A DNA stretch of 17,507 bases. Origin: Candidatus Latescibacterota bacterium. GTDB taxonomy: Bacteria > Latescibacterota > UBA2968 > UBA8231. Both the position numbers and the translations under genes were made by a program. Numbering within the stretch: position 1 is the stretch's first letter; each line of letters starts with the position of its first letter. The notes under the pieces are model-generated. The model was not told the origin of the DNA. It did not search any database and saw nothing but the letters and a program-made list of their open reading frames with translations. Of the stretch, positions 5,800 to 17,310 are shown piece after piece. The stretch is from assembly GCA_965242865.1 (NCBI GenBank), contig CBDETK010000003.1, positions 1 to 17,507 of the forward strand, written 5' to 3'.

Positions 5800-5927
5800 C
5801 CCCCTGATCCCGCCCCTGATCCCGCGCACGTCAACGCGGGCGGAGAGGCCCCCGCCCCGCTCCGGGAGGCAGGTGCGCGGGGGGGACCTTCGCCGGTCGC
5901 CGGGTGCGCCTCCCGCGAACGCTCCCG

Positions 5928-6643
5928 GGGGCGGCGCGCCCTCGATCCGAAGCTCCCCGGGTCACGGTTCGGCGGCGAGTCGCCGCGACGATGGGGGCGG
6001 CGCACCCCCCAATCCGAAGTCCGAAGCTCCCCGGGTCGCGCGGCCCGGCCGGGCCGACGGCCCCGATGGGGCGGCGCGCCCCCAATCCGATGCTCCCCGG
6101 GTCTTCCCGTGCCGGCGGGACGCCGGCGTACCCGGGGCGGGGCGGCCCCAATCCGGCTCCCCGGGTCTTCCCGTGCCGGCGGGACGCCGGCGTACCCGGG
6201 GCGGGGCGGCCCCCAATCCGGGCTCCCCGGGTCTTCCCGTGCCGGCGGGACGCCGGCGTACCCGGGGCGGGGCGGCCCCAATCCGGAGCTCCCCGGAGTC
6301 TTCCCGTGCCGGCGGGACGCCGGCGTACCCGGCGGGGCGTCCCCCAATCCGGGCTCACCGGGTCTTCCCGTGCCGGCGGGACGCCGGCGTACCCGGGGCG
6401 GGGGTACCCGGGGCGGGGCGGCCCCCAATCCGGGCTCCCCGGGTCTTCCCGTACCGGCGGGACGCCGGCGTACCCGGGGCGGGGCGGCCCCAATCCGAAG
6501 CTCCCCGGAGTCTTCCCGTACCGGCGGGACGCCGGCGTACCCGGGGCGGGGCGGCCCCCAATCCGGGCTCCCCGGGTCTTCCCGTGCCGGCGGGACGCCG
6601 GCGTACCCGGGGCGGGGCAGCCCCAATCCGGGCTCCCCGGGTC
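5928..6643. repeat. CRISPR-like repeat/spacer array without cas genes: 11 ~36-bp repeats and 10 spacers (2 unique, plus 8 copies of a third)
   Basis: Repeat consensus GGGGCGGCGCGCCCCCAATCCGAAGCTCCCCGGGTC at 5928-5963, 5994-6037 (with an internal 7-bp duplication) and 6068-6103, then 8 more variant copies. Spacers 5964-5993, 6038-6067 and 6104-6133 are each 30 bp and unrelated apart from a shared CGAT near the 3' end of the first two. Spacer 3 recurs with a 64-67 bp period (one 81-bp unit has a 15-bp internal duplication). Confidence 0.85.
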
Positions 6644-6973
6644 GGGCAAGGCTCGACTGGTTATCCGGATTCGGATTTTTCAGCTCTCGGAGGTTCCCGG
6701 TACCGGGAACGATTCGATGAGGCGTGCGGCGCGGCGCCGGGTCGGCGCCGGCTCGGTGGGCACGGACAGGGCCGGGGCCGAGGGGCCGGCCGGAACCCGG
6801 CAGGTGTTGCGGCAGCGGGCCGCGAGCTCGCCGAGCAGGGTGTCGAGGCCGTGAAGGGGCGCTCCGTCGTCGCTGCGCCGGGATGCTTTCCCGTGCCGGG
6901 CGCGAGCGGTGGGTTGGGCCGCGGCGACGGGGTCGCGGGTGCGCCGGGCGTCGGCCAGGGTCCCGTCGTCGAA

Positions 6974-7320
6974 CCGCAGCGGCGCCCAGGCGCGGCGCAG
7001 GCGCCATCGGTGCGCCACCGTCCCCACCCCGACGCCCGCGGTGGCGCCCAGGCGCGGCGCAGGCGCCATTCGGTGCGCCACCGTCCCCACCCCGACGCCC
7101 GCAGCGGCGCCCAGGCGCGGCGCAGATGCCATCGGTGCGCCACCGTCCCCACCTCGACGCCCACGGTGGCGCCCAGGCGCGGCGCAGATGCCATCGGTGC
7201 GCCACCGTCCCCACCTCGACGCCCACGGTGGCGCCCAGGCGCGGCGCAGATGCCATCGGTGCGCCACCGTCCCCACCTCGACGCCCACGGTGGCGCCCAG
7301 GCGCGGCGCAGGCGCCATTC
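6974..7320. repeat. 62-63-bp tandem array: 6 copies of a transposase segment separated by 5 copies of a non-transposase insert
   Basis: GGCGCCCAGGCGCGGCGCAG starts at 6981, 7043, 7106, 7168, 7230 and 7292 and encodes part of W(R/H)LRRAWAP. The intervening sequence is GGTGCGCCACCGTCCCCACCYCGACGC. Confidence 0.9.
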
Positions 7321-7337
7321 CAGGCAGCCGGCCAGCA

Positions 7338-7450
7338 GGCACACGAGCCGATGCGCCCCGACCCGGCGCTCCTCATGTTGAAGGTCGCGATGGTGTGCTG
7401 CTCGCCCTGGGAGGGCACACGAGCCGATGCGCCCCGACCCGGCGCTCCTC
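7338..7450. repeat. Perfect 37-bp direct repeat flanking a 39-bp foreign insert
   Basis: GGCACACGAGCCGATGCGCCCCGACCCGGCGCTCCTC at 7338-7374 and 7414-7450. The insert 7375-7413 reads SQGEQHTIATFN(M) on the minus strand. Confidence 0.92.
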
Positions 7451-7567
7451 GCGGTGGCGGATGGGACGCACCCGGACGTCGAGCCCCTTCAGCGTGCGGA
7501 ACCAGCGTTCGGCGTCGGCCAGCCCCTTGCAGGTGCGCACCGTGTCTTCGGGGGAGAGCCGCCCGGC

Positions 7568-7791
7568 GGGCTCGCTGGTGCGAAGCACGTACGGGCTCGC
7601 CGGTGCGCAGCACGTACGGGCTCGCCGGTGCGAAGCACGTACGGGCTCGCCGGTGCGCAGCACGTACGGGCTCGCCGGTGCGCAGCACGTATGGGCTCGC
7701 CGGTGCGCAGCACGTATGGGCTCGCCGGTGCGAAGCACGTACGGGCTCGCCGGTGCGAAGCACGTATGGGCTCGCTGGTGCGCAGCACGTA
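7568..7791. repeat. 25-bp tandem repeat x9 (transposase YVLRT(S/G)EP segment plus 1 nt)
   Basis: GGGCTCGCYGGTGCGMAGCACGTAY starts at 7568, 7593 and so on to 7768. Confidence 0.93.
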
Positions 7792-7798
7792 GATGCCG

Positions 7799-8037
7799 TC
7801 GAGGCGCGCCTCGGCGTCGGTCCGCGCGTGGTCCCGTTCATGGACATCGAGGCGCGCCTCGGCGTCGATCCGCGCGTGGTCCCGTTCATGGACATCGAGG
7901 CGCGCCTCGGCGTCGATCCGCGCGTGGTCCCGTTCATGGACATCGAGGCGCGCCTCGGCGTCGGTCCGCGGGTGGTCCCGTTCATGGACATCGAGGCGCG
8001 CCCCGGCGTCGGTCCGCGCGTGGTCCCGTTCATGGAC
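7799..8037. repeat. 48-bp tandem repeat x5 (transposase [16 protein letters not shown])
   Basis: GAGGCGCGCCTCGGCGTCG...CATGGAC starts at 7801, 7849, 7897, 7945 and 7993. Confidence 0.93.
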
Positions 8038-8130
8038 CAGGCGCCCGTCGTGGACCGTCCACCGGAAGTGCTTGGCCATCCCCCGATGGGACTCGGGGGC
8101 AGGCTCGTGCCGTGCGATGACCCGGCCCGC

Positions 8131-8313
8131 CTCGTGCCCGGGCCGTGCCGCGTGCCCGGGCCGTGCCGCGTGCCCGGGCCGTGCCGCGTGCCCGGGCCGT
8201 GCCTCGTGCCCGGGCCGTGCCTCGTGCCCGGGCCGTGCCTCGTGCCCGGGCCGTGCCGCGTGCCCGGGCCGTGCCGCGTGCCCGGGCCGTGCCGCGTGCC
8301 CGGGCCGTGCCGC
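8131..8313. repeat. 18-bp tandem repeat x10 ((A/E)ARPGH)
   Basis: CGTGCCCGGGCCGTGCCK repeated between the transposase segments RTPLD and EAGRVIARH. Confidence 0.93.
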
Positions 8314-8694
8314 GTCGAGCGGCGTGCGGGTGCGCCGGGCGGCCTCGCGCGCGATGCGTCCGGGTCGTCCTCGTCGTCCTCGTCGTCGCCCAAGTCGAGC
8401 TCCTGGACCAGCGTGGTGGTATGCCACCGCCGGGCGGTGCGAGCTTCGAGCCGGGGTGGAGCAGCCGTCCCACGACCATGGCCAGGACCCGATCACGCTC
8501 GGGCGAGCGCTTCGGGGCGATGAGCCGGTCCAGCCCCAAACGCCGGGTCATGGCCAGCACCGCTTCGACATGGCCATGGGGGAGGGAGCGTTCGATGGTG
8601 AAGGCTTCCTCGGGGCCGGCCCGTCCGGGCTTCTCCCGCTCCACGTTGCGCTCCGGTTGCGCCCGTCCCATTACGGCGCACTGGGAAATGCGGG

Positions 8695-10398
8695 CTATTG
8701 ATTCGCACATTCAAGATTCGCACCTCCAAGCTTCGCACCTAAAAGCTTCGCACCTTCAAGATTCGCACCTTCAAACTTCGCACCTTCAAACTTCGCACCT
8801 TCAAGCTTCGTACACTCAAGATTCGCACCTTCGAGATTCGCACCTTCGAGATTCGCACCTTCGAGATTCGCATCTTCGAGATTCGCACCTTCGAGATTCG
8901 CACCTTCGAGATTCGCATCCCTCAAGTCTGCGCGAAGAAGCTTCGCATTTTGCAGCTTTGCCCGAGTCAGATTCGCTCCTTGCAACCGGGCTGATAAAAT
9001 ATTCGCGCCTCGTAGATCTGCCCGAGTCAGATTCGCTCCTTGCAACCTGGTTGATATGATATTCGCGCGTTGTAGATTTGCCCGATTCAGATCCGCCTCT
9101 TGCAACCGAGTGTTCGATAATTTTGCATCCTGAAGAGAAGCCAGATTAAGATTCGCATTCTGCATACTTGCGCTTGCGAGGTCGGCGTTCTGCAACCGCG
9201 CACCTCTCAGATCTGCATCCTGCAGTTTCGCTTTCGAGAAATTTGCACTCTGCAATCGCATGCCTCGCATCTCCGCACCCCGTAAATCTGTTTCTTCGAA
9301 GTTCCCTCCATGTATCCAAGTGGATGTCAATTTGGCGAAAAGAAATTTTCGCGAGCTCAGGTCGACTATATCCTTGTAAAATCGGTTGATTCCATTCTCG
9401 TCTTTGGATTCCTCGGATGATCGAGCTTTCAGCTCCCGGTCTGACATTCTGACCAGCTCCCTGTTTCTGACATCGAGATAACGGCAGGCGATGCCCCATG
9501 ATTCGCAGGGTACCGCATCGAGAAAATTTCTTCTCATGAGCACTACGTCGATGATCTTCTGTAACTGCGATATTTCATCGGCCTCAGGGAATTCGCGCCA
9601 GATCTGCTTTCGATCTTCTTCTACGGTTTCGTGATCGAATACCGGAGGACGGGCTGCGAATAGTGCAATTGACACCATGAAGATGGGGACAACAAGTAAC
9701 AGTAACGTTTTCCACAACGTCGTCCACGAAATGGGTCTGGGATTTCCGCGTGGCCGAGGGCCTCCATCCTCCATGAGTCTCTTTTCTGCCCACCTTTTAC
9801 TATTGAGTACGATCCACGCAACAAATATCAAATCCGTTAAGAACAAGGTATCATGGATCAGGGTAATCGTACCAGATTGATAACGAACAAAAGAAAGATC
9901 GACAGCGAACAGCAACCCCAATGGTATTGCCACAATGACCAGGAATGCCAACAGTCTTGACAGCCAGTTTGAACTTTCCTGGCAGTTTGAACTTTCCTGG
10001 CAGTTTGAACTTTCCTGAATCGCTTGAACGAAAATGGAGGCGGAAAGCCGATCTCGCAATTCCTGTCTGGTTATACCGGAACCGGGAGTTCGAGGACATT
10101 CCTCTTTCAACACTAAATCGAATCTTGATGTTTTAAATCTGAGCTCTCGCAATACGAACAAGAAATAGATATGCAGAAAGAACAGGATCAATGGCCCAAT
10201 GATATAGCTATCCCTCAGTGAAAGTCCGATGTCCAACTGCCCCACTATCAAGTTGAGGAAAAGATTTTCATCGGTAGAGGAGATCACTATCCATAACAGG
10301 TAGAGCGCCACCACCAGGAACAGGAGCATCGTGGCCTGCGCCTTCCGGGCCGTGTCGTTGACTGCTTCAATCAGTCGGTGCAATCGCTCGTCATTCAT
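8695..10398 (-). CDS. Membrane-anchored pentapeptide-repeat protein 1 (567 aa)
   Basis: ATG at 10398 follows AAGGGGAG and aligns with the paralogue start ([19 protein letters not shown] vs MNRKDLDRLSRLRESANDSARS). About five hydrophobic segments precede long A(D/N)Lxx pentapeptide repeats, ending in a 15-bp ANLEG tandem run (~8700-8920). Confidence 0.9.
9964..10017 (-). repeat. In-frame 18-bp tandem repeat x3 (QESSNC/W)
   Basis: CAGTTTGAACTTTCCTG at 9965, 9983 and 10001. Confidence 0.9.
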
Positions 10399-10770
10399 CC
10401 GGAACTCCCCTTTCGGGCTATTCAAGGACGGGTTGCCGCCGCAAAGCCGGAACCCCGGCATGTCGCCGCTATTCGTGTTTGCAACGCTTGCCCCCGCGGC
10501 GGCAGGCATTGCCGCGCTCGTTCCCTCCATGTCGCCCGGTCAGGATCCGGAGGCAGGCATTGCTTCCGTGCCCTGGTGAGAGAAGCAGGCTAAAGCCCGA
10601 AGCCGACCTGTCCCGCCAGCAAGGCGGGAACCACTTCCTTCATCCATCCGCAGCACTACGTCTCTACCCGCCCATCTGATCCGGGGCCTCTGCCCACCTC
10701 TTGATTGCGATTCGACCGCCACTGCCGGTTGATGGGAGGACAGCCTCGAAGGAGTCACCTGCTCGCAACA

Positions 10771-11341: not shown

Positions 11342-13332
11342 TTATTCGCCAGTGATTTTCTTCAGATCAGCACGCAACTGTTCCGGCAACATGTTTGCCA
11401 CGGCAGGACACTTCGCTTTCAGCAGATTCTCCGCGAGCTGGGGACCAAGCAAGCGATCTGCAAAAGCCCGACGAGCAATTCCCTTGGCGACGTAGCCACT
11501 TGATCCGTCTTCACAGGCCAACTCATCGACAAGGTAAGTTGCAAGTTTCTCTCGATATCTTTCGCCGATTGATTCTTCTTCGGAATGTGGGAAACCGTGT
11601 GCATCATCATCATCAATAGAATATCTATGTTTTATGGAGAGTTGATCAATTGTCTCATGATTCTTTGCATTTGCAATTCTATCCTGTATTTTCTCGAAGA
11701 CCTCCATATCATCAACAGTTTTCCTTATCTGCGTGTGTAATTCAGAAAGATCTGGCTCACAAGAATCGATGGTGCGCAGATCTGCATAATCGAAATTGGT
11801 TCCGATCAATTCTGTACCACAAAATTTAGCTCCTCTCAAATCCGCACCACCAAGATCGGCATTTGTCAAATCCGCTCCATAAAGCTTGGCCTTTCTTAGA
11901 TCTGCACCTCTGAGGTCAGCATCCCTTAAATCCGCCCCATGAAGTTCGGCCCCGACCAAGTCTGCCCCATGAAGTTCGGCCCCGACCAAGTCTGCGCCAT
12001 GAAGTTCGGCCCTGTTCAAGTTTGCGCCATGGAGTTTGGCCCTGCCCAAATTTGCGTCATGAAGTTCGGCTTCGTCCAGATTTGCGCCATGAAGTTCGGC
12101 CCTGTTCAAGTTTGCGCCATGGAGTTCGGCCCTGTTCAAGTTTGCGCCATGGAGTTTGGCCCCGCCCAAGTTTGCCCCATGAAGTTCGGCCTCGTCCAGG
12201 ATTGTATCGTGAAGTTCAGCGTTGAGAAAATTTGCACCGTGAAGTTTAGCTCTGCTCATCTCTGAACCGTTAAGTATTGCGAGCTCAAAATCTACTGCAC
12301 ACAATATTGCGCCGGATAAATCTGCGTCCCTAAAAACACGATCTTTCAGATCAAGCGGTCGGGCATATTTGCACCAGACAGGTGTGCCAGGATCGATTGC
12401 TTCTTCGTCACATCGATTCTCGCCGCAGGTGTCAAGATAGGCTGATAAAATTTCAGGTGGAGGTCTCTCCTGTACCAATTCACGATCTTGAAATTCATAC
12501 TTCCGTCGAAAGCATGATATAAAATGTAAGCTAATCCCGATATTGATATTGCGATTATTATCACACTTTCAATTGTTCGTCGTAGGTTCTCAAACGACCG
12601 TCTCCTCTGATTCCGAACCCACTGTATCCGTGTCTTTTTTGGTGCAACGATTCCAGGCCATAGCCACCACAGGATACCGACATCTGCCACCACGAGTATA
12701 AATTGCAAAATCGTGATGCGTCCCGATTGATACTCTAGAAATCGTACTCCAGTGACAACTAAGATGACGAGTGGTATTATAATAATAGGGATTATAACCA
12801 AGAATAGATTCTGCCATGTACAGTCAGAGTCTCCTTCTGCAATCATATGGGCGAGCGGTGCGGGAAACAGAAGATTACGCATCTCCTTCTTCTCGCCGTC
12901 CTTCTTCTCGCCGTCCCTCTCCTCGCCGTCCCTCTCCTCGCCGTCCCTCTCCTCGCCGTCCCTCTCCTCGCCGTCCCTCTCCTCGTCGTTTGACGACGAC
13001 GGCAATCGGTGCGAATAAATCTCCGAAATCGCCAATGCATACCGATGCACTTTGTACGAGAGAAATTTTGCTTGAATAAGTAGATTGAAGTGCAGGGCCA
13101 GAAGAATCAACGGTGAGACGATGAAGAACGATCTAATTGGTACACTAAAATTGACAATAGCTATTTGTAAACTACCATTACGAAACAACTCCTCCTTCTC
13201 CCTGAACATCACGATAGAGAGGATGTAAAGCACGATGACGAGGTAAGAGACGTACACCGTGCGAAAGCTGCGTGCACTGTCATTCGCGGATTCGCGCAGA
13301 CGGCTCAATCGATCCAAATCTTTCCTATTCAA
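11342..13332 (-). pseudogene. Membrane-anchored pentapeptide-repeat protein 2, split by a frameshift near 12500-12530
   Basis: TTG start with AGGAGG RBS. The N-terminal TM half (ORF 12346-13332) is homologous to protein 1. The pentapeptide half (ORF 11342-12478) is in the -1 frame, which already reads FRRKYEFQDRELVQERPPPE upstream of its listed start, matching [12 protein letters not shown] in protein 1. Confidence 0.8.
12886..12990 (-). repeat. In-frame 15-bp tandem repeat (NDEER, DGEER x4, DGEKK x2)
   Basis: CTCGCCGTC at 12892, 12907, 12922, 12937, 12952 and 12967. Confidence 0.92.
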
Positions 13333-14235: not shown

Positions 14236-14637
14236 TCATGCCGGCAGTCCGGCGCCCGAGTCCTCATTGTGCCCCGCAGCCCCGGCGACCCGGGAGACGA
14301 AGCACGCCGCCTCGGCCTCCTTGCGCAAGGCGCGAAACGCCTCGATGCGCTTCCTCGACTGCGGGGCCGCGTCGCGGAACATGCCCCCCCTCTCCCCCGG
14401 GGTGCCGTAGAGAAAGCTCAGGGTCTCGGCCGCGGTGTAGTCCCGGTACGCCATCCGGGACGCGATCCTGTCGATCGTGCAGATGCACGGGTAGAGGGTG
14501 TCGTAGCTCTGGCCCCCGTGCTCGCCCATGCAGGCAAGCACGAACTCGACGCGGGCCTGGGTCGGGAAGTCGTTCGCCGTCGCACCGCCTCCGTAGGATA
14601 ATGCGGCGAGCGCCAGCGCAAGCAGCGGCTTTTTCAT
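14236..14637 (-). CDS. Conserved secreted/periplasmic Cys-containing protein (NDFPT.ARVEFVL.CM...C.C.ID.IA family)
   Basis: Signal peptide MKKPLLALALAALSYGGGATA and high-GC codon usage. Motifs NDFPTQARVEFVLACM, YPCICTIDRIAS and GERGGMFRD resemble a hypothetical family I recall near PQQ-dependent alcohol/methanol dehydrogenase clusters (unverified). Confidence 0.8.
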   Translation of the reverse strand: MKKPLLALALAALSYGGGATANDFPTQARVEFVLACMGEHGGQSYDTLYPCICTIDRIASRMAYRDYTAAETLSFLYGTPGERGGMFRDAAPQSRKRIEAFRALRKEAEAACFVSRVAGAAGHNEDSGAGLPA

Positions 14638-14690: not shown

Positions 14691-15029
14691 TGTCAGGGCA
14701 GGGGCATGCCGGGATGCTTTCTTGTGCCGGGCGTGAGCGGTGGGCTTGGCCGGGGCGACGGGGTCGCGGGTGCGCCGGGCGGCCTCGCGCGCGATGCGTT
14801 CAAGGTCGTCCTCGTCGTCGCCCAAGTCGAACTCCTGGGCCAGCGTGGTGGTATGCCACCGCCGGGTGGTGGCGAGCTTCGAGCCGGGGTGGAGCAGCCG
14901 TCCCACGACCATGGCCAGGACCCGGTCGCGCTACGCCAAGCGCTTCGGGGCGATGAGCCGGTCCAGCCCCAAACGCCGGGTCATGGCCAGCACCGCTTCG
15001 ACATGGCCATGGGGGAGGGAGCGTTCGAT
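14691..15029 (-). mobile_element. IS1634-family remnant 2 (minimal deletion derivative)
   Basis: Closely similar to 8325-8598 and 6880-6950. Reads [10 protein letters not shown]...[47 protein letters not shown]|[12 protein letters not shown]|DPVAPAKPTAHARHKKASRH|APALT, with an in-frame TAG. Confidence 0.88.
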
Positions 15030-15081: not shown

Positions 15082-17310
15082 TCAACAGCATTTTGGACAC
15101 TCGCCGGGAGTGTCCGGTGCATGAGTGAGAAGAGAAACTACCTCGGGCTCATCTTGGATACTGGCGTAATGTAGAGGCAATTTTCCTTGTCCATCCTCCA
15201 TCGAAACTGCACCAGCGCTCAACAAAATTCTAATAATCATGACATCACCAGTGTAAGCGGCCGCATGCAGTGCGGTGAGTCCATTTTCGTTCTGAAGATT
15301 GACGTCTGCATCAATCTCCAGTAGGGAGCAAACGACCTTGGAATTAGCCTTTCTAACGGCCTCATGCAGGGCAGTATCGCCCCGGTTGTCGCGCTGATTC
15401 ACATCAGCACCCCATTTATGCAGGAGAACAACGAAAGCAGGGCGATCTCGTTGAGCTGCACGATGCAAGGGAGTCTTTCCAAAGATGTTACGCGCATCCA
15501 ATCGGCTACCAGCCTCCAACAAAATCTCACCGATCTCAAGATGACTTTGAGAGGCAGCTTGATGCAGAGGAGAATGGTCAAACTTATCTTGTGAATTCGG
15601 ATCTGCCCCGAATTTGAGCAGTATACGTACAATCTCGACATAGCCTCGAGTAGCGGCCAAGTGTAGGGGGGTGCGGGTCCTGGTCTGTAAATTGAAATTC
15701 GCGCCAGCCTTGAGCAAGAGATCCACAGTGTCTTTGTGGTCATTCTCAACTGCCAAGTGTAAAGGGGAATAGCCAAAATTGTTCTGCAAATCCGGATTTC
15801 CGCCATTGTCAAGAAGACGTTTGACAACCTCGTTGTTGCCCCTAATCGAGGCCCAATGCAAAGGGGTTAATCCATTGCTATCGGGAGCATTGGGATTGAG
15901 GCGACGGTGAAGGCGAGGAACGTGAACAACCTCATTAGTGGTATATGAAGGGTGCGGGTCAGGATAACGGAGGGAAGTGGTTTCTGAAGAGGACAACTGA
16001 GGAACACGAGTTTTTATGGCAACGGCAGATTCCAAGGTATCGACAAGTCCGTACTTTTTGGAGAAGTCGGATGGGGGTTCAGCATCACGAACCTTCGTAG
16101 GATGAAGGAGATCGGCATAGCGTTGGAAAGATACAGGGTCAGATCCAAAAGCGAGTAGTTTGTCAACAGTCGTGAGGTCGCCGTTGAAGGCGGCTTGGTG
16201 GAGCGCGGTGAATCCATAATCACCCCACATATCCGAATCAATAACTTCCAAATCAGCGCCCATCGTGGCTAGGGCGATAACAGTCTCAGAGTGACCTTGA
16301 TCCTTGGCCCGCTGGATCGGAGTCAACCCCTCCTCGTCCTGCACACTCGGGTCGGCGCCAGCGATAATCAAAGCGATGGCAATCTCGGAGTATCCATGAG
16401 CCGCTGCCTGATGCAACGGGGTAGACCCGTTGTTGATCTGCACATTCGGGTCGGCACCACCTGCAAGCAGCTCATCGACAACCTCGGAATAGCCCTGAGT
16501 GGAAGCTTTGTGCAGAGGGGTACATCCACCTTCGGTCAGCGCATTCGGATCAGCACCATAAGAGAGCAGACTGGAAACAATCCGAGGACGATCCAGAGCA
16601 GTGGCGATATACAGAGGATTGCATGCAGTGTCCTTCGCATTGGGATCGGCACCAGCCTTTAACAAAATATCAACGGCCTCGATATGGTCTTCGAGAATAG
16701 CGATGACCAGGGGAGTATACCCGTCGACACTCTGGATATTCGGATCAGCGTTAGCCTTCAACAAGGCATTTATAGTCTCTGGAAAACCCAGAACAGCCAT
16801 ATGCAGAGGGGCGAAACCGTCGATGTCCCGCGCATTCGGATCAGCACCGCCACGCAGCAGCGCGTCGACAACATCAGGAGCATCTTGAAGAGTGGCGATA
16901 TACAGTGGGGTAATCAGGTTGTCATCCGGAATATCTACTAAGCCAGCATCAGCCTCCAGCAAAACACCAACTGCCTCGGAACCACCTTGAAATGCGGCCA
17001 AGTGCAGGGGACTGAATCCGTCAGTGCTCTGGACAGCTAAATCAGCACCAGCCTCCAACAGCGCTGTGATATTAGCGGGGTCGCCTTCGAAGGCAGCCAA
17101 GAGCAGAGGGGTCAAGGCATCGACAGTCGGCAAGTTGGGATCGGCACCTGCCTTCAGCAGAGCAGCAACCTCCTCGACATTCCCACGGATAACGGCGTCG
17201 TGGAGCGGACCGAAATGGCCGGCGGCTTGGGCCGCATAGGCCAACACCGTGAATATAAATGCGATGAGAACTCGGAATCTCATAGGAACACGTAGACCCG
17301 GATAATTCAT
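15082..17310 (-). CDS. Secreted ankyrin-repeat protein (~19 repeats); start at 17310 or 17283
   Basis: Signal peptide MRFRVLIAFIFTVLAYAAQA. Eleven TPLHxA...LLxxGADPN-type repeats, an ~80-aa non-repeat insert, then eight more repeats. C-terminus GECPKCC. Confidence 0.95.
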   Translation of the reverse strand: MNYPGLRVPMRFRVLIAFIFTVLAYAAQAAGHFGPLHDAVIRGNVEEVAALLKAGADPNLPTVDALTPLLLAAFEGDPANITALLEAGADLAVQSTDGFSPLHLAAFQGGSEAVGVLLEADAGLVDIPDDNLITPLYIATLQDAPDVVDALLRGGADPNARDIDGFAPLHMAVLGFPETINALLKANADPNIQSVDGYTPLVIAILEDHIEAVDILLKAGADPNAKDTACNPLYIATALDRPRIVSSLLSYGADPNALTEGGCTPLHKASTQGYSEVVDELLAGGADPNVQINNGSTPLHQAAAHGYSEIAIALIIAGADPSVQDEEGLTPIQRAKDQGHSETVIALATMGADLEVIDSDMWGDYGFTALHQAAFNGDLTTVDKLLAFGSDPVSFQRYADLLHPTKVRDAEPPSDFSKKYGLVDTLESAVAIKTRVPQLSSSETTSLRYPDPHPSYTTNEVVHVPRLHRRLNPNAPDSNGLTPLHWASIRGNNEVVKRLLDNGGNPDLQNNFGYSPLHLAVENDHKDTVDLLLKAGANFNLQTRTRTPLHLAATRGYVEIVRILLKFGADPNSQDKFDHSPLHQAASQSHLEIGEILLEAGSRLDARNIFGKTPLHRAAQRDRPAFVVLLHKWGADVNQRDNRGDTALHEAVRKANSKVVCSLLEIDADVNLQNENGLTALHAAAYTGDVMIIRILLSAGAVSMEDGQGKLPLHYASIQDEPEVVSLLTHAPDTPGECPKCC

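Follow-up and report, generated by a model that had tools for sequence, protein, structure and literature searches.

The window comprises 17,507 bp and represents the entire contig C3 of G000, a metagenome-assembled genome (MAG) of 13 contigs and 6.0 Mb. It contains the remnant of an insertion sequence (IS), in whose transposase gene a short foreign DNA segment is enclosed between two copies of a perfect direct repeat. Neither an Rfam family nor a tRNA gene was matched within the window. The features considered in the following are listed with their coordinates in the window:

6624..8614, minus strand: internally deleted remnant of an IS1634-family (PF01609) transposase gene; residues 58–136 and approximately 340–576 of the intact relative P0006 are kept, and the DDE core (approximately 137–339) is missing
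7338..7374, no strand assigned: direct repeat copy 1, 37 bp; native transposase sequence, corresponding to nt 405–441 of the intact IS copy in locus L142
7375..7413, minus strand (the sense of folE2 and of the transposase): insert of 39 bp, gammaproteobacterial folE2 gene fragment, coding for SQGEQHTIATFNM when base 7374 is included
7414..7450, no strand assigned: direct repeat copy 2, 37 bp, identical to copy 1
5925..6646, no strand assigned: array of 11 copies of a unit of about 36 nt (16 nt of flank and the first 20 nt of the IS end), with hairpin-like spacers of 29–30 nt
6981..7318, no strand assigned: 62/63-nt array of six copies of a 27-nt native segment and five copies of a 35–36-nt non-native insert
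7567..7791, no strand assigned: 25-nt tandem array, nine copies, native sequence only; the copy number varies between assemblies
7799..8037, no strand assigned: 48-nt tandem array, five copies, native sequence; two or five copies in other assemblies
8129..8315, no strand assigned: 18-nt tandem array, 10.4 copies, native sequence; about three copies in P0123
14236..14637, minus strand: small conserved gene serving as lineage marker of the contig; 93% nucleotide identity to G002 and G049, 89% to G001 and 74–81% to more distant relatives
14708..15029, minus strand: a further and shorter remnant of this IS, which has the internal deletion in common with the first

Three further minus-strand genes (8695–10530, 11342–12478, and 15082–17310) encode two pentapeptide-repeat proteins and an ankyrin-repeat protein of 742 amino acids. 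These pentapeptide and ankyrin genes are situated in islands of 45–53% G+C adjoining DNA of 70% G+C. The contig starts with an open frame of 1,912 codons without a Pfam match, the family of which recurs many times in the gammaproteobacterial MAG G001.

A script comparison of the window sequence showed the 37-mers at 7338–7374 and 7414–7450 to be identical (37/37). The bases outside the repeats are unlike (A at 7337 versus G at 7413; A at 7375 versus G at 7451), which sets the direct repeat at exactly 37 bp and the insert (7375–7413) at 39 bp. This bears out the first-pass annotation, which had described a 39-bp fragment between perfect 37-bp direct repeats from the letters of the window. The return of a perfect 37-mer at a distance of 76 bp cannot be explained by chance. 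Base 7374 (C) is ambiguous, because it is equal in the donor gene described below, and the event can be parsed as 37 + 39 or 36 + 40 bp. Apart from this single nucleotide of microhomology with the donor on one side, the junctions show none (0 nt on the other side), and the long microhomologies that the first-pass annotation had regarded as a sign of template switching did not occur. The minus strand of the insert from 7412 to 7374 codes for SQGEQHTIATFNM; in the frame of the transposase, the insert reads PPRASSTPSRPST and is followed by a stop. Folding of the single strand revealed no special hairpin at the insertion site (z +0.8 and +1.7) and thus gave no support to a fragile hairpin at this position.

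The acceptor gene was characterized by comparison with related proteins. Of 351 candidates, 311 proteins matched a 59-residue piece of the window transposase at E ≤ 0.001. PF01609 is present in most of the listed relatives of approximately 576 amino acids, one of which is an IS1634 family transposase by its NCBI name. The window transposase is colinear with the intact relative P0006, lacks the N-terminal 57 residues as well as the left end, and contains several frameshifts. The DDE catalytic core is not intact (deletion of residues approximately 137–339). According to the first-pass annotation, removal of one repeat together with the insert restores the transposase, which was confirmed with P0006: the resulting ...REERRVGAHRLVC-LLAGCLEW... 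is colinear with ...REERRVRAHLLVCLLAGYLEW... of this protein, and the restored frame reads ...HRLVCLLAGCLEW..., which is likewise colinear with it. The remnants at 14708–15029 and 8309–8614 share one internal deletion (residues approximately 137–339), indicating that both originate from an already deleted, non-autonomous copy. An extra deletion at an RRTR microhomology was detected in the remnant at 14708–15029. Since the site is located within a dead mobile element, the insertion event has no evident function.

To identify the insert, 185,579 species genomes were searched in a degenerate scan for DNA encoding GEQHTIATFNM. At least 120 loci were obtained, which, among the matches listed, belong nearly all to gammaproteobacterial MAGs. 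In 119 of the 120 matches listed, GTHMSRF follows within 20 residues; the preceding SQ is also present in only four of these 120. The closest among the matches listed, L046 and L026, are located on the chromosomes of two gammaproteobacterial MAGs and are identical to the insert in 38 of 39 positions (39 of 40 including base 7374), the sole difference being the third base of one glycine codon. Their open frames were assigned to PF02649 (FolE2) with E values of 6.3e-99 and 3.6e-99, respectively. Judged by these sequence matches, the insert is a folE2 gene fragment, which covers 13 codons of FolE2 (GTP cyclohydrolase IB, PF02649) rather than a full-length domain, while the donors are full PF02649 genes. 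The identification as folE2 in the first-pass annotation holds in view of the GTHMSRF context in 119 of the 120 matches listed and the PF02649 assignment of the closest loci.

The presence of the unit in independent data was analyzed with Logan contigs of four runs from two studies, one run of which may be the source sample, in comparison with positions 7250–7600. Exact Logan contigs covered 7338–7413 (X7), 7338–7403 (X8 and X11), and 7384–7443 (X7 and X11). Both junctions were spanned in X7 and X11, and the left junction alone in X8. The junction contigs were 60–76 nt long and had a depth of 60–620, like the unique flank 7291–7367 of each run; those across the right junction extended 30 letters to either side, one under the 31-letter criterion. 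A joint skipping the insert was not listed among the Logan contigs of the four runs over 7250–7600. A chimeric read, as considered in the initial annotation, is not in accordance with the occurrence of the junctions in contigs of several runs (at least two to three). Furthermore, the proteins P0003 (251-kb contig) and P0004 (4.32-Mb contig) from two other near-identical assemblies end in ...RVGAHRLVCPPRASSTPSRPST, which is the insert read in the frame of the transposase. In these two assemblies and in a third one (P0123, P0150; 21-kb contig), the copy numbers of the 18-, 25-, and 48-nt arrays are unlike those of the window. The insertion is thereby shown to be real and inherited, and the insert is older and more stable than the arrays. 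Alternative inserts at this site were not seen in other strains among the assemblies compared, and the exact 37-mer and the exact 39-mer had no match in public metagenome contigs (0 each). At position 7512, the window has a G and all compared Logan contigs of all four runs have an A, which may be due to an assembly error or to the filtering of exact-locus contigs at this position.

Arrays with periods of 66, 62, 25, 48, and 18 nt are located between 5.9 and 8.3 kb of the window. In the 62/63-nt array, unit 2 begins with TC and ends with CCGCAGC, which correspond to the native flanks. Its preservation of the native flanks points to an ancestral duplication of 35–36 bp around an insert of 27–28 bp. 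The spacers of the array at 5925–6646 are of three kinds, the third of which is repeated eight times, and the last copy of the unit is the real IS terminus. The layout of this array is CRISPR-like, but it may just be a REP-like array. Searches of G000, G001, G002, and 650 kb of further loci gave no donor for the 35-nt insert or for any of the three hairpin spacers. The 25-, 48-, and 18-nt arrays of the transposase vary like VNTRs. In four near-identical assemblies, the copy number of the 48-nt unit is 2, 5, 5, and 2 and that of the 25-nt unit approximately 4, 7, 9, and 10; the 18-nt array has about three versus about ten copies between near-identical assemblies. Loose ends that stem from intact relatives in the reads show that these relatives lack the 25-nt array. 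A perfect 76-nt tandem duplication (2.0 copies, 100%) was observed at L170:3674–3826 in G001, where a partial copy of this IS is located approximately 400 nt away. Its period is probably equal to that of the studied event by coincidence.

The donor gene is not part of the binned genome. In all 13 contigs of G000, the 39-mer had no other match longer than 15 nt (blastn-short), PF02649 was matched by no protein (0 matches), and tblastn with a full FolE2 recovered only the 13 residues of the insert. G000 was ruled out as donor on these grounds, and the near-exact folE2 match expected in the host genome by the first-pass annotation failed to appear in the binned MAG. The genus of the bin was also rejected as donor: FolE2 is found in 6 of its 30 genomes, and the two FolE2 genes compared match the 40-mer at 21 of 40 positions, which is the random level. 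An orthologous locus was detected in none of 24 genomes of the same genus (eight gave short spurious matches of 26–46 nt), and the rest of contig C3 had matches in none of 30 such genomes. In the runs, other contigs match the insert and then extend as true folE2 on both sides; their ends translate to IRHPVRVRDR upstream and YVELPHNFKG downstream, and no differing letter was listed inside the insert. The samples of these runs therefore also contain a donor gene whose 40-mer is identical or nearly so.

Contig C3 is probably mis-binned and, judging from its composition and its matches, appears to belong to the folE2-bearing gammaproteobacterial sponge-symbiont clade. It had no blastn match at E ≤ 1e-8 to the other contigs of G000, and of eight C3 proteins, the ankyrin protein alone has (generic) relatives there. 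The first 8.6 kb of C3 have a G+C content of 70–72%, and none of the 2,244 5-kb windows of the main G000 contig reaches 70%. The folE2-bearing gammaproteobacterial MAGs G001 and G002 gave 50 and 36 DNA matches to C3, respectively, including several intact copies of the IS, the large repeat protein family, and pentapeptide proteins. The identity of the gene at 14236–14637 falls in steps across the relatives, which is the pattern of an orthologue. Five of five further gammaproteobacterial relatives encode one FolE2 each, with 28–38 of 40 positions identical to the 40-mer. The host genome was not found when the first 5.9 kb of the contig were compared with 26 relatives of G002; only weak matches (65–81%) were obtained, in G001. 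Because the contig looks mis-binned and appears to stem from a folE2-bearing clade, a self donor is plausible, and the insert would most simply be a copy of the host's own folE2. The "possibly self" donor of the first-pass annotation is accordingly not encoded in the binned MAG but gains plausibility from the resemblance of the contig to this clade. In G002, folE2 is located 8 kb from the orthologue of the 14236–14637 gene (C1:2531466/2539463 pair); in G001 and G049, the two genes are megabases apart. A remnant of a native folE2 at this position was rejected, because the 8-kb proximity is found only in G002 and not in G001 and G049 and because the orientation differs.

CRISPR arrays were compared in both candidate hosts, the bin G000 and the gammaproteobacterial MAGs G001 and G002. 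G000 harbors two large Cas1-linked arrays of 41 and 57 repeats (C13:3522935–3525849 and 4796507–4800849), both with 37-nt repeats; the spacers comprise 34–37 nt in one of them and 36–49 nt in array B, where 10 of 56 intervals have a period of 76. The second array is preceded by genes for Cas_APE2256 (CARF-type), Cas1, and Cas2. True CRISPR arrays of small size, with two repeats each, are also situated at C4:12434 and C4:27026. Cas1 was matched in the bin by two genes, which are confined to C13, with none on contig C3. In G001 and G002, the CRISPR repeats have lengths of 37, 37, 37, and 36 nt and the spacers of 31–40 nt (35–40 nt in G001 L163 and G002 L167); L165 also contains a repeat of approximately 38 nt with a period of 67–68. 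Of the intervals in the G001/G002 arrays, 3 of 41 and 1 of 115 have a period of 76; these arrays adjoin I-G-like cas genes and Cas4-Cas1 fusions. Three Cas1 matches each were obtained in G001 and G002, two of those in G002 lying within one Cas4-Cas1 gene. The duplication of 37 (or 36) bp corresponds to the CRISPR repeat length in both candidate hosts, and the insert of 39–40 nt is within the spacer range of both. Since 36–37 nt is a common CRISPR repeat length, the coincidence in length is less specific than it appears. When the 37-bp target was aligned with four CRISPR repeats in both orientations, the best in-register match was 15 of 37 (shuffle p = 0.14). The donor flanks on the sense strand are CCG before and GTA after the fragment and do not contain TTN, which we take to be the type I-G PAM.

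From the geometry of the unit, we tentatively favor, with somewhat less than even confidence, an off-target spacer integration by Cas1-Cas2 as its origin. A fragment of 39–40 bp of folE2, from the gammaproteobacterial sponge-symbiont clade to which the contig itself most likely belongs, would have been inserted once into an already dead IS1634-family copy, whereby 36–37 bp of the target were duplicated. An off-target reaction of a CRISPR adaptation integrase, either Cas1-Cas2 or Cas4-Cas1/Cas2, would have been responsible. Two strand transfers on opposite strands, one repeat-length apart, would be followed by gap repair, which duplicates the stretch on either side of the spacer-sized insert. 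The product would be a repeat-spacer-repeat unit outside any CRISPR array, with the cell's own folE2 as the presumed donor. The nearby 18-, 25-, and 48-nt tandem arrays would reflect a separate, minisatellite-type instability of the dead gene.

Off-target integration with duplication of a repeat-length stretch is documented for Cas1-Cas2 of E. coli (Nivala 2018), as reported in passages of 10.1101/148544, PMC6698737, and PMC7054753, and passages among the same sources describe that the off-target integration sites of P. furiosus share features with repeats. The microhomology of 1 nt and 0 nt fits a ligation or transesterification and not an annealing-primed switch. In addition, a second event can be read from the 62/63-nt array, in which 35–36 bp were duplicated around a foreign insert of 27–28 bp. 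Several observations count against an integrase. The target appears to have no detectable likeness to any of the four repeats compared. The 27–28-nt insert of the second event is shorter than any spacer in the arrays examined. Finally, at least five other duplication arrays within 2.5 kb point to a local non-CRISPR instability, which the integration leaves unexplained. No other clean duplication-plus-insert event was found in the 6-Mb bin G000. Among the isolated candidates there, C13:3499537 (38 + 33) was discarded as a relic of a paralogous gene end, C13:17963 (37 + 43) as REP-like hairpins, and two on C4 as the small CRISPR arrays described above.

Template switching is less probable but remains a serious rival, as the locus is full of plain tandem arrays. 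In a FoSTeS/MMBIR-like event or by serial slippage, a nascent strand would have switched from the IS template to folE2, where it copied 39 nt, and then returned to the IS at a point 37 nt behind its exit; the same local instability would have made the neighboring tandem arrays. The position of the insert within a 2.5-kb stretch of arrays with periods of 18, 25, 48, 62, and 66 is consistent with such an origin, as is the variation in array copy number among the four near-identical assemblies. Breaks within residues 458–478 are also found in other fragments of this IS family, which is partly an effect of ascertainment, and perfect tandem duplications also occur in sampled gammaproteobacterial MAG DNA, for example the two 76-nt copies in L170. 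However, template switching usually shows 2 nt or more of microhomology, whereas the junctions have just 1 nt and 0 nt. The donor is distant in two of the three relatives with both genes mapped (8 kb in G002 only, megabases in G001 and G049), the insertion site has no special hairpin (z +0.8 and +1.7), and template switching offers no reason why two events share a duplication of approximately 36 bp.

A more far-reaching version of the integration is that the locus is a natural snapshot of the birth of a CRISPR array, which we consider doubtful. A Cas1-Cas2 integrase with a 36–37-bp ruler would have acted two or more times on the dead IS copy, inserting DNA of spacer size at sites 20 bp apart, one insert being a piece of the cell's own folE2 and the other a 27–28-nt piece whose source was not found. 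One of the units would have expanded by recombination to six repeats, and the array at 5925–6646 would perhaps be a third, older product.

A staggered double-strand break is unlikely to have produced the unit. Nicks approximately 37 bp apart would have been filled in and ligated to a stray fragment (filler capture), and the break was possibly made by an IS1634-type transposase, some relatives of which generate long, variable target duplications. According to passages of De Palmenaer (2008; PMC2266710), the direct repeats of IS1549 and IS1634 range from 8 to 514 bp, and no mechanistic model is proposed there for them. Intact copies of this IS are numerous in the clade, and filler capture could also account for the insert-free 18-, 25-, and 48-bp duplications. 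On the other hand, three intact IS copies were inspected in G001 and G002, and none of them has a long target duplication (0–5 bp at most). Ku was found in none of five gammaproteobacterial relatives, which weakens a capture of filler DNA by end joining. To our knowledge, excision footprints of this kind have not been described for bacterial IS elements.

Template jumping of a reverse transcriptase, in which cDNA synthesis passes from the transposase mRNA to the folE2 mRNA and back and the cDNA later recombines into the locus, is very improbable. The folE2 fragment and the transposase do have the same sense, template switching by reverse transcriptases requires little or no homology, and the remnant also contains internal deletions at short homologies; but the proposal is pure inference, and we know of no route by which such a cDNA replaces chromosomal DNA in bacteria. 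An assembly or sequencing artifact such as a chimeric read can practically be dismissed: the window contig is short (17.5 kb), repeat-rich, and probably mis-binned, and all compared Logan contigs disagree with it at 7512, but exact contigs with a depth like that of the flank run over both junctions (X7, X11) or the left junction (X8), and P0003 and P0004 from two other assemblies end with the insert in the transposase frame.

Of the known systems, the off-target integration favored here has its closest counterpart in neo-CRISPR loci, as far as these are portrayed in the passages citing the E. coli type I-E experiments (Nivala, Shipman & Church 2018). Both have a spacer-sized insert, a repeat-length duplication outside an array, and junctions without homology, and Cas1-Cas2 systems of matching geometry are present in the candidate hosts. 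In contrast to the over-expression experiment, the event described here is a natural one in an uncultured symbiont. It involves a housekeeping gene as donor, which probably comes from the cell itself; no likeness to a repeat was detectable in the target, and the participation of an integrase is presumed. The structure works in part like the seed of a neo-CRISPR locus: the two lengths and the type of junction agree, and mimicry of a repeat by the target was not found in the comparison with four repeats. With a canonical CRISPR array, the unit has in common the repeat-spacer-repeat layout, the 37-nt repeat, and the 39-nt spacer; unlike such an array, it consists of two repeats only, its "repeat" is transposase coding sequence, and there is no leader, no cas gene on the contig, and no Rfam match. 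The FoSTeS/MMBIR rearrangements known from human and E. coli genetics also combine a duplication with a templated insert from elsewhere and are surrounded by many duplications, but the microhomology here is 0–1 nt and two neighboring events share a duplication of about 36 bp. The long, variable target duplications of IS1634 and IS1549 (Vilei 1999; Plikaytis 1998; both as treated in passages of PMC2266710) concern the same IS family and are likewise direct repeats of tens of base pairs. They differ in that the repeats described here flank a gene fragment inside the IS and that intact copies in the relatives are without long duplications.

The locus is neither a CRISPR array nor a functional transposase nor a folE2 gene. 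In a search of the open PMC full text and of bioRxiv, no published account was encountered of a natural repeat-spacer-repeat unit that lies within a transposase and has a housekeeping gene as donor. For natural off-target integration, passages of 10.1101/148544 offer circumstantial evidence only, from two other species. If an integrase is indeed responsible, the unit would be a wild example with an identified donor and both junctions intact, and hence a substrate on which the choice of non-CRISPR targets by the integrase can be tested. It would help to explain the origin of new arrays and would reveal the frequency of self-DNA sampling in a situation where no guide is expressed from the product. 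If an integrase is not responsible, the locus would still offer, within a small region, a natural series of duplications with and without inserts for the study of illegitimate recombination, in a bacterium that apparently lacks Ku.
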